Virus record (IMG/VR): IMGVR_UViG_3300045988_122072
Coordinates: 64,001 to 128,000 of that record
Direction: 5' to 3' (one strand)
Source: a virus
DNA: 64,000 bases
The notes beneath the pieces are model-generated. The model was given only the letters and a program-made list of their open reading frames with translations. It was not told where the DNA came from and ran no database searches. Shown here piece after piece: positions 28,676-29,824 of this stretch (position 1 is its first letter; every line of letters starts with the position of its first letter). Both the position numbers and the translations under genes were made by a program.

Positions 28676-29824
28676 ATGTCTAATGTTAAAGTAGTAATCG
28701 GTAGCAATTTTGGGGACGAAGGAAAAGGATTGATGACTGATTATTTCTGCGCAGAAGCAAAAAAGCGGAATGAATCCTGTATTGTTGTTTTATCTAATGG
28801 CGGAGCGCAGAGAGGGCACACTGTGGTTACGCCAGATGGCATTAGACATGTGTTTCATCATTTTGGTTCTGGCACTTTTGCAGAAGCCCCTACATATTTT
28901 AGTGAGCAATATATTTTGAATCCTATGACTTTCAGAAAAGAGCATGAAGAATTGGATTCTTTAGGCTTTAAGCCACTCGTTTGTGCTCATTGGAATTGCA
29001 GATGGTCAACGCCGTATGACGTGATCGTAAATCAAATTCTTGAAGATAGTCGTGGAGAAAATCGACATGGATCTTGCGGCATGGGAATCTGGGAAACTAT
29101 CTGCAGATATACAAGTACTGGAGCACCATCATTGCGGCACTTTAATATGATGAGTGAAGAATATAAAGTTCAATTTCTAAAAAATATTAGAGATAAATAT
29201 ATGCCGCAGAGATTAGCGTCTGCGAATCCAGATGTAGTAAAACAGTGGGAAGAAATTCTATATTCTGATAATCTAATTTATAATTTTATTGCGGACATTC
29301 AGTTCATGTGTTCGCATATGGTTTTTGATTATGGACGCATATTGAGACGATATGACAATGTTGTATTTGAAAATGGGCAAGGTCTGCTACTAGATCAGAA
29401 CCAGACAAGATACGGAGACAATACAACTCCTAGCAATACTGGAATTCAGAACCCGCATGTGATTATTGAAAAGTATTTATTTGGCGCTAACGTTGAAGTG
29501 TGTTATGTTACAAGAACATACCTAACAAGACATGGTGCTGGGGCTTTTGATGGTGAATGTGATAAATCTGAAATCAATGGTTCTATGAAAGATAAGACCA
29601 ATGTGCCAAATCCGTATCAGGGCAGTATTCGATATGGTAAGCTGGATGTTAATGAACTTGTAAACAGAATCAAAAAGGATATTGGGGAGCATTCTTATAA
29701 TGTATCTTTGGCAGTGACACATTTGAACGAGTTTGAAAACAAAGAGTTATTGGCACTAAAGGAACTAAATGTTAAGTATTTGTCTTATAATGAGACTAGA
29801 AAATTAACAGAAAAAATTTCCTGA
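28676..29824 (+). CDS. adenylosuccinate synthetase family protein (short PurA/PurZ-like)
   Basis: Start ATG 28676 behind RBS AGAGGAG. GSNFGDEGKG P-loop, GGAQRGHT, HGSCGMG, ENGQGLLLD, TRHGAGAF and GKLD motifs line up with PurA landmarks. Confidence 0.8.
   Translation: MSNVKVVIGSNFGDEGKGLMTDYFCAEAKKRNESCIVVLSNGGAQRGHTVVTPDGIRHVFHHFGSGTFAEAPTYFSEQYILNPMTFRKEHEELDSLGFKPLVCAHWNCRWSTPYDVIVNQILEDSRGENRHGSCGMGIWETICRYTSTGAPSLRHFNMMSEEYKVQFLKNIRDKYMPQRLASANPDVVKQWEEILYSDNLIYNFIADIQFMCSHMVFDYGRILRRYDNVVFENGQGLLLDQNQTRYGDNTTPSNTGIQNPHVIIEKYLFGANVEVCYVTRTYLTRHGAGAFDGECDKSEINGSMKDKTNVPNPYQGSIRYGKLDVNELVNRIKKDIGEHSYNVSLAVTHLNEFENKELLALKELNVKYLSYNETRKLTEKIS

Follow-up and report, generated by a model that had tools for sequence, protein, structure and literature searches.

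The stretch of gut-phage DNA analysed here, a window of 64,000 nucleotides (positions 64,001 to 128,000 of IMG/VR record IMGVR_UViG_3300045988_122072) from a genome of ~163 kb, encodes a 382-residue homologue of adenylosuccinate synthetase (PurA), hereafter the PurA-like protein, and two further proteins whose genes lie directly upstream (Table 1). The open reading frame of the PurA-like gene spans 28655..29824 on the plus strand; an AGGAG ribosome-binding site precedes the ATG at 28676, and the stop codon ends at 29824. The Pfam model Adenylsucc_synt (PF00709) matched the protein at E 1.3e-29, far beyond chance, with residues 6-307 aligned to profile positions 1-287 of 416 and the C-terminal ~130 positions unmatched. 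An AlphaFold2 (AF2) model built from an input of 93 homologues (pLDDT 95.9, pTM 0.94) recovered PurA structures in Foldseek, the best being E. coli PurA (E 2e-21, TMq 0.70, 23% identity). Bacterial PurA proteins were likewise the best sequence matches, and phrog_1211 matched at E 4.3e-65. The original prediction of a 382-residue PurA-family protein is therefore borne out by the open reading frame, by PF00709 and by Foldseek. Every motif that it listed is present: GDEGKG (residues 13-18), GGAQRGHT (42-49), HGSCGMG (131-137), ENGQGLLLD (232-240), TRHGAGAF (284-291) and GKLD (321-324). The segment NVPNPYQGSIRYG corresponds to residues 309-321. Megablast of 20 kb of the window revealed no close DNA relative among sequenced phages, the closest sequenced record (MT835469) being alike at the protein level only.

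Both upstream genes belong with the PurA-like gene, a relationship that the original prediction had missed. The nearer encodes a vWA/MIDAS protein that matched phrog_2971 at E 8.7e-63 and is annotated as hypothetical everywhere. No Pfam domain reached threshold in this protein, and a faint match to DUF444/YeaH (E 0.26) coincided with its MIDAS site. The AF2 model, of moderate confidence (pLDDT 68.8), matched integrin I-domains, CMG2 and Rpn10 vWA domains with a Foldseek probability of 1.0. The MIDAS residues D74-x-T76-x-S78 are invariant, as are T179 and D182, and the window protein reads DVTGSMG. The farther gene encodes p194, for which no Pfam, PHROG or PADLOC match was found. The gene that takes this place in phages of Rhizobium and Vibrio is probably a remote homologue (hhalign probability 71%, E 3.8e-5).

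The vWA start codon lies 2 nt past the p194 stop codon, and the PurA-like ATG 14 nt past the vWA stop codon. A promoter, predicted by consensus match only, is located 59 nt upstream of the first ATG, that of p194. A second consensus promoter follows the PurA-like gene, and no terminator-like site was found between the PurA-like stop codon and this promoter. We take the p194, vWA and PurA-like genes to form one promoter-bounded operon in the window. Three 12/12 matches to the sigma-70 consensus, all with a TG-extended -10 element, begin at 27125, 29831 and 30248 (plus strand) inside 3.2 kb, and each immediately precedes a gene or RNA. Expression of this accessory region thus appears to rely on perfect promoters of the host type.

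The association between the PurA-like and vWA genes was assessed across loci. In phages of Rhizobium, Vibrio and Mycobacterium, the gene immediately before the PurA-like one encodes an orthologue of the vWA protein (E 1e-40 to 6e-53). A vWA gene was present at 83 of 84 viral loci, in 76 of them on the same strand and no more than 500 bp upstream, and at 70 of 71 assessable bacterial loci, directly adjacent in 67. Among sequenced phages it occurs in 201 Mycobacterium, 10 Rhizobium and 6 Vibrio records, the very distribution that the PurA-like gene shows. Since the flanking genes differ from locus to locus while the set itself stays intact, the genes move as a cassette. It is very likely that the PurA-like enzyme and the vWA protein constitute an obligate functional unit.

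Homologues of p194 occupy the same position at 75 of the 84 viral loci and at 22 bacterial loci. An alternative third partner, C3 (~340 residues), combines an N-terminal J-domain with a protein-kinase-like region and is homologous to gp270 of mycobacteriophage I3. Homology between p194 and C3 was considered and rejected (hhalign probability 0.4%); the two are apparently alternative, mutually exclusive partners. The vWA protein begins with Met-Gly in 91 of 91 distinct sequences, continuing as x-G-x-[WFY] with W, F or Y at position 6, and mostly ends in G-[ILV]-x-[W/F]. These conserved termini are the segments that are disordered in the AF2 model, as would be expected of docking or substrate peptides. 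The final residue of the vWA protein tracks the third partner, being W in 91 of 94 p194-type cassettes and F or L in 26 of 28 of the J-domain kinase type. Such tracking could reflect either physical contact or plain shared ancestry. A DUF2828/TROVE-like gene at 30797..32386 was rejected as a general part of the module, being present at only 5 of 84 viral and 1 of 80 bacterial loci.

Active-site residues were compared in an alignment of 154 family members with E. coli PurA, whose numbering is used for the family, and then in 156 more sequences from fetched loci (~310 in all). The residues of phosphotransfer and purine activation, G12-D13-E14-G15-K16-G17, H41, Q224 and T239, are invariant across the family, with Asp at the Asp13 position in 154/154 members of the first set and 154/156 of the second. 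The window protein keeps the P-loop and the equivalents D14, H48, Q235 and T251. At the site for inosine monophosphate (IMP), Q224 and T239 are retained, N38 is replaced by Gln and T129 by Cys. The position aligned with R143, which PurA supplies from the second subunit, lacks Arg, and an invariant Arg lies four residues earlier (R144 in the window protein).

The L-aspartate loop of PurA, G298-A-T-T-G-R303-R304-R305, is replaced in the family by N-x-[FYW]-Q-G-[ST]-[LIF]. In the window protein the loop is N312-P-Y-Q315-G-S-I, such that the positions of T300, T301, R303, R304 and R305 read P, Y, G, S and I, and Arg was found at the 303 or 305 position in none of the ~310 family members. The divergence that had been suspected in the aspartate-binding region is thus real. 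Family-specific invariants are N312, Q315 and R319 (numbered as in the window protein) and a His at position 273 of E. coli PurA (within TRHG), where PurA has Val; this His is H286 in the window protein. An argument for guanine specificity from the KLD motif fails because the motif had been mis-assigned. 'GKLD' aligns with G308-W-L-D311 of E. coli PurA, just past the Arg loop, and the true counterpart of T-K331-L-D333 is T348-H-L-N351, with H349 and N351 in place of K331 and D333. Ser414 of the PurA guanine site is retained as S370. The residue at the Asp333 position follows the type of cassette, being Asn in 90 of 95 p194-type and Asp in 22 of 32 C3-type members.

The original prediction had put forward the protein as a candidate PurZ or PurZ0. 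Such an enzyme would condense deoxyguanosine monophosphate with aspartate toward dZTP in a phage that swaps A for 2-aminoadenine. The protein is indeed a phage-borne PF00709 member, short like PurZ, with nucleotide-metabolism genes elsewhere in the window, and its relatives are named '2-aminooxy adenylosuccinate synthetase' by PHROG 1211 and RefSeq, a label which we ascribe below to annotation transfer. In phage PurZ and PurZ0 (n=147), however, Ser (rarely Gly) replaces PurA Asp13 in 100% of sequences, and these proteins form a monophyletic clade (PMC12884076); reversion of this Ser to Asp (S14D) removes substrate selectivity (bioRxiv 2025.10.22.683976). Ser occupies the position in phiVC8, S-2L, JeffCo and Litotes, whereas the window protein has Asp, and the aspartate-binding arginines that PurZ keeps are lost here. 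The NCBIfam PurZ model NF038379 gave 27.8 bits against a cut-off of 300 bits, spanning residues 4-92 only. A search of Protein Data Bank (PDB) sequences with the PurA-like protein returned no PurZ chain at E<0.01, tblastn with phiVC8 PurZ left the window open reading frame unmatched even at E 10, and structural comparison with PurZ and PurZ0 gave 13-16% identity and TM-scores of 0.62-0.69. The sequenced phages retrieved by the two queries were essentially disjoint: tblastn of the PurA-like protein found 201 Mycobacterium (cluster-C), 10 Rhizobium and 6 Vibrio records, and that of phiVC8 PurZ found Arthrobacter, Microbacterium, Gordonia, Acinetobacter and podoviral Vibrio phages. Genes that keep company with PurZ encode dATP/dGTP-clearing enzymes and a Z-selective polymerase (DatZ, MazZ/DUF550 and DpoZ, or DutZ/DmtZ/DUF5664). 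Within the 64-kb window, tblastn with DatZ (two sequences), MazZ, DpoZ, PrimPol and Litotes gp49/PolI gave only E>0.5, an ordinary dUTPase domain at 58818-59153 being the sole match, and the replicase is of the DnaE type. Synthesis of 2-aminoadenine DNA by this protein is accordingly highly improbable.

The other assignment that had been left standing was an ordinary auxiliary PurA, which would raise the synthesis of AMP from IMP, aspartate and GTP. This would accord with the best sequence and structure matches, with the intact P-loop, Asp13, His41, Gln224 and Thr239, and with the NAD-salvage neighbourhoods described below, to which a supply of adenylate would be suited. It fails because the Asp-binding Arg and Thr residues are gone, T300, T301, R303, R304 and R305 being replaced in more than 300 family members, and because the protein scores about five-fold below the cut-offs of the curated PurA equivalog models (81.4 bits for NF002223, cut-off 402; 72.7 bits for TIGR00184, cut-off 395.55). 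The changes at K331 and D333 and the unmatched C-terminal part of the profile count against it too, and a plain PurA would need no obligate vWA partner. We regard this assignment as very unlikely.

Phylogeny placed the protein outside both groups. A neighbour-joining distance tree (370 columns, 100 bootstraps) was computed from seven PurA, three PurZ, one PurZ0-type and 28 family sequences, the canonical PurA proteins representing six bacterial lineages and one archaeon and being taken from chromids and plasmids. It resolved three clades, each with 100% support: PurA (7/7), PurZ/PurZ0 and the PurA-like family (28/28). This agrees with a published tree of 767 sequences, where the PurA clade comprises 251 and the PurZ group 151, the remaining several hundred being left without discussion (PMC12884076). 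The PurA-like protein is very likely neither PurZ nor PurA, and what survives of the original prediction is its hedge of 'a new PurA-derived activity'. In the neighbour-joining tree, a 571-residue 'adenylosuccinate synthetase' encoded beside small AAA ATPase genes and an insertion sequence (IS) element on a Ralstonia solanacearum megaplasmid (CP071915, 4425-6140; locus L178) clustered with PurZ/PurZ0, and not with PurA or the vWA-associated clade. It may represent another uncharacterised branch of the PurA superfamily in a cellular genome.

In an exhaustive search at E<=1e-30 the family comprised 2,262 clusters or more when grouped at 50% identity, and a collection clustered at 90% held 7,554 proteins at E<=1e-5. 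Members are ~370-440 residues long, and the clade signature (GDEGKG + NGGxQxGHT + HGSCG + TRHG + N-x-[FYW]-Q-G-x-[LIF]-R) is present in full in the window protein. The clade occurs in all cluster-C mycobacteriophages, in Rhizobium Kleczkowskaviridae, in Va1-like vibriophages and among thousands of metagenomic proteins. The cassette is also found in bacterial assemblies of Bacillota, Melainabacteria/Cyanobacteria and Alpha-, Beta- and Gammaproteobacteria. No solved structure nearer than PurA was detected by Foldseek. A literature search found no paper that joins an adenylosuccinate synthetase or PurA-like enzyme with vWA, NrtR or NAD depletion, and none that describes the distinctness of the clade, its partners or its regulator. 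We consider the PurA-like family to be a large, unstudied third branch of the adenylosuccinate-synthetase superfamily.

Around 220 GenBank/RefSeq phage records name this clade '2-aminooxy adenylosuccinate synthetase' or 'PurA-like adenylosuccinate synthetase'. Examples are I3 gp273 (NC_067270), Y65 gp019 (NC_070967) and pv27 CDS0145 (OR413349); phiVC8 PurZ bears the first of these labels, and the PurZ Ser signature is in none of the mislabelled proteins. The PurZ-derived names have been transferred through PHROG 1211, which lumps the clade with PurZ, and the RefSeq/Pharokka-style naming is, as judged from sequence, a systematic mis-annotation of ~220 records. Because the clade departs from PurZ on all criteria that could be tested, false positives are to be expected when 2-aminoadenine (Z) genomes are surveyed by PF00709 or PHROG 1211. 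The residue at the Asp/Ser position, taken together with a vWA neighbour, offers a simple filter against such calls.

The bacterial copies of the cassette differ in their genomic company. An NrtR-family protein (Nudix plus NrtR_WHD winged helix), its Nudix box mostly degenerate, is encoded near the cassette at 46 of 80 bacterial loci versus 0 of 84 phage loci. NrtR regulators sense ADP-ribose, a product of NAD+ cleavage (PMC2330246). Neighbours resembling NadV, Prs or PncA were found at about a dozen bacterial loci of several lineages, including a prophage-like Ruminococcus locus in which the cassette lies between NadV/Prs/PncA-like genes. A Rhodococcus plasmid carries the full set, and in Rhizobium phage Y65 genes resembling PRTase and NadM lie 4-5 kb from the cassette. 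NrtR-linked cassettes are carried, among others, by Rhodococcus pDK3, Clostridium chromiireducens and Ruminococcus sp. AM36-2AA. Given the NrtR-type regulator of the bacterial copies and the location of some of them inside NadV/Prs/PncA-like clusters, the module may answer NAD+ breakdown or ADP-ribose; for the bacterial versions we judge the odds of such a link to be even. Phages may use the module against NAD+-targeting defence. The NrtR regulon paper lists nrtX-nrtY, an uncharacterised operon of two genes, as a predicted NrtR target that is frequently divergent from nrtR; it occurs in Proteus, Hahella, Streptomyces, Frankia and Kineococcus (PMC2330246, Table 1). Whether these genes are part of the cassette was considered, and the text of that paper does not identify them. 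In PADLOC-DB v2, no match at E<=0.01 was obtained for the PurA-like, vWA, p194 or C3 proteins; the NrtR-like Nudix protein alone had a weak match, to a candidate family. NARP3 was considered as a related system and rejected, as it comprises PnuC and NadR, which are unrelated.

The residues that produce 6-phosphoryl-IMP survive while those that bind free aspartate are lost, which argues for the same first half-reaction followed by transfer to a new amine acceptor. We propose that the protein is a PurA-derived ligase of a third clade, partnered by the vWA protein and using an amine acceptor other than free aspartate, and we assign this reading a probability of roughly 0.45. The enzyme would form the 6-phosphoryl intermediate of a 6-oxopurine nucleotide from the gamma-phosphate of a nucleoside triphosphate (NTP), and the purine nucleotide would then pass to an amine other than free aspartate to give an adduct linked through N6 of the purine. 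From the replaced loop residues, free aspartate is probably not the acceptor. The favoured candidates would be the flexible N-terminal Gly of the vWA partner (GxGxW after removal of Met) or a peptide shown by the vWA and chaperone-like partners.

That the acceptor is protein-borne is suggested by the almost constant presence of the vWA protein, its invariant N-terminal Gly and the chaperone-like third partners, and this part of the proposal is itself rather doubtful. A still bolder form, in which Gly1 of the vWA partner (or a partner-presented peptide) takes IMP or another 6-oxopurine nucleotide, is unlikely. This 'N-terminal purinylation' would be a post-translational chemistry unknown so far. 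In bacteria its use would be controlled by ADP-ribose through NrtR, and in large phages, more than 200 cluster-C mycobacteriophages among them, it would serve in NAD+ conflicts. Retention of the activation half-reaction with replacement of the acceptor site, in a very large cross-phylum branch, makes new nucleotide chemistry of some kind likely, and the finding would become categorically new if protein purinylation were true. The vWA protein, the J-domain kinase or Met/Gly-rich partner and the bacterial NrtR and NAD-salvage company point to an unrecognised module of NAD+/ADP-ribose stress or of defence and counter-defence.

Several observations weigh against the proposed ligase. Its substrate, phosphate donor and acceptor are all inferred. 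In a covariation analysis of the vWA N-terminal peptide against PurA-like loop 304-323, no pair stood out and phylogenetic confounding was heavy. The adjacency of the genes could equally mean regulation or scaffolding and not a substrate relationship, and R144, together with the retained R319, might accommodate a carboxylate substrate in some unforeseen way. No consistent motif was found as a shared NrtR operator, palindromes such as TGTTATT-N4/5-AATAACA being seen at loci L146 and L164. No NAD-salvage genes were found in the window and the phage cassettes are without NrtR, so that any NAD link is indirect for this phage.

The chief alternative to a protein-borne acceptor is amination of a 6-oxopurine nucleotide by a small molecule (ammonia, another small amine or an amino acid, as in an IMP-to-AMP 'aminase'), with the partners acting as regulators, scaffolds or chaperones. 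The conserved catalytic core and the lost Asp site are equally compatible with such an enzyme, the small polar N-x-aromatic-Q-G loop could make a pocket for a small ligand, the NAD and adenylate context fits, and the covariation analysis lent peptide docking no support. Small-molecule amination would nevertheless leave unexplained the invariant yet disordered N-terminal Gly and the aromatic C-terminus of the vWA protein, the constant chaperone-type third partners (J-domain; Met/Gly-rich) and the near-perfect co-occurrence with the vWA gene, and we hold it to be unlikely. PurA belongs to the SIMIBI class of P-loop proteins, the home of many regulatory GTPases. This kinship, together with partners resembling chaperone and signalling parts (vWA, J-domain, kinase-like region), would suit a non-catalytic switch that performs no purine ligation, in which the PurA fold senses nucleotides, much as a GTPase does, within a chaperone or signalling complex of vWA and J-domain proteins. 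The purine-chemistry residues Asp13 (the general base), His41, Gln224 and Thr239 are, however, invariant in more than 300 divergent sequences, as are the family-specific His273, Asn312 and Gln315. Such a pattern is typical of an active enzyme and renders a mere switch improbable.

Table 1. Features of the window bearing on the PurA-like gene and its context.
Feature	Position	Strand	Evidence and remarks
Predicted operon promoter	27125..27152	+	TTGACA, 16-nt spacer, TG-extended TATAAT; 12/12 sigma-70 consensus
p194 (beta-rich N-domain, Met/Gly-rich linker, acidic C-terminal tail)	27211..27795	+	Open reading frame with AAAGGAG ribosome-binding site
vWA/MIDAS partner, 287 residues	27798..28661	+	MGGGSW N-terminus, GISW C-terminus; phrog_2971
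PurA-like enzyme, 382 residues	28676..29824	+	PF00709, AF2/Foldseek, alignment, tree; third clade of the adenylosuccinate-synthetase superfamily
Next predicted promoter (3' boundary of the operon, outside the module)	29831..29858	+	12/12 consensus, 7 nt past the PurA-like stop codon
DnaE-type polymerase	20706		Named by the original prediction, confirmed
Weak HD domain	38936		Named by the original prediction, confirmed
Guanylate-kinase-like gene	53055		Named by the original prediction, confirmed
NT5C (predicted as a deoxyribonucleotidase)	53628		Confirmed

The context genes that had been listed from the sequence are present, namely the DnaE-type polymerase, NT5C, the guanylate-kinase-like gene, the weak HD domain and a ribonucleotide reductase (RNR), the last in split form. 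The RNR barrel domain is divided between 54802..55629 (profile positions 8-213) and 56087..57526 (positions 230-522 plus a TSCPD domain), both on the plus strand. The gap of ~460 nt suggests that an intron, intein or homing element interrupts the gene; Rfam at the gathering threshold found no intron there. A 370-residue open reading frame at 51124..52236 (+) has an N-terminus that resembles, by eye, TnpB/OrfB-type IS200/IS605 accessory proteins.

Two long tRNA-like RNAs, detected by Rfam and missed by ARAGORN, lie at 30341-30464 (124 nt) and 30473-30590 (118 nt) on the plus strand. Both retain intact acceptor, D and T arms, insertions of ~58 nt stand in place of the anticodon loop, and a weak match to YrlA (Y RNA-like; 26 bits, E 0.002) was obtained. 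They are located between the promoter at 30248-30275 and the gene at 30797..32386 (+), which encodes a DUF2828+DUF7788 protein of TROVE/Ro-like plus vWA type (phrog_850, 'RNA-binding protein'). The gene and the RNAs may thus represent a Ro-like protein of the phage and its tRNA-like Y RNAs. Six tRNA genes are clustered at 33045-34842, among them a tRNA-Ile (anticodon TAT, 33284-33379, +) which, at 96 nt, is unusually long for a type I tRNA. An RNA-repair-type block at 39859-47000 (+) contains an AAA_33 kinase with a weak HD domain (43107..44033), a Thg1-like tRNA-His guanylyltransferase (46061..46894) and several unannotated neighbours. This block, the tRNA cluster and the Ro-like gene jointly point to a putative arsenal for tRNA repair and maintenance.

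Comparison with known systems begins with PurA itself (EC 6.3.4.4; E. coli, PDB 1CG3/1ADE). Common to both enzymes are the fold, GDEGKG, Asp13/His41, Lys16, Gln224, Thr239 and the QGxLLD and TRxGxG motifs and, probably, NTP-dependent O6-phosphorylation of a 6-oxopurine nucleotide, a shared step that we infer. The PurA-like protein differs in its replaced L-Asp site, in His for V273, Gln for N38 and Cys for T129, in the lack of Arg143 and in the change of TKLD to THLN. It is ~50 residues shorter, its C-terminal part is different, and it has an obligate vWA partner where PurA has none. PurZ and PurZ0, the N6-succino-2-amino-2'-deoxyadenylate synthases of Z-genome phages (PDB 6FM1, 7ODX, 7VF6), resemble it in being phage-borne, short members of the PurA superfamily, grouped with it in PHROG 1211. 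PurZ, however, has Ser14 and the aspartate Arg residues, in contrast to Asp and no such Arg in the PurA-like family, and the PurA-like gene is without DatZ/MazZ/DUF550/DpoZ or DutZ/DmtZ neighbours.

Two further precedents concern the partners of the enzyme. The TerY-P triad and PrkA-YeaH-SpoVR are modules of a vWA protein plus a kinase, and the type-B (C3) cassette similarly pairs a kinase-like protein with a MIDAS vWA protein. The cassette nevertheless lacks a PP2C phosphatase, the PrkA AAA+ domain and SpoVR, and a PurA-like enzyme is not known to be part of those modules. Conflict systems that are related to ADP-ribose, regulated by a Nudix-TF (NrtR-type) and equipped with a vWA 'peptide-binding chaperone' have been described (Iyer, Burroughs, Aravind and colleagues, Viruses 2022, PMC9503650), the vWA domains of NrtR-type systems being regarded there as Mg2+-dependent peptide-binding chaperones. 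Bacterial PurA-like cassettes likewise combine an NrtR-like Nudix plus winged helix-turn-helix regulator, a vWA protein and an enzyme, a likeness which by analogy suggests that they are induced by ADP-ribose and act upon some protein or peptide. The published systems are, however, built on ADP-ribosylglycohydrolases and phosphatases, and none is described as containing a J-domain kinase or a protein akin to PurA or p194. The resemblance is one of concept and not of membership.

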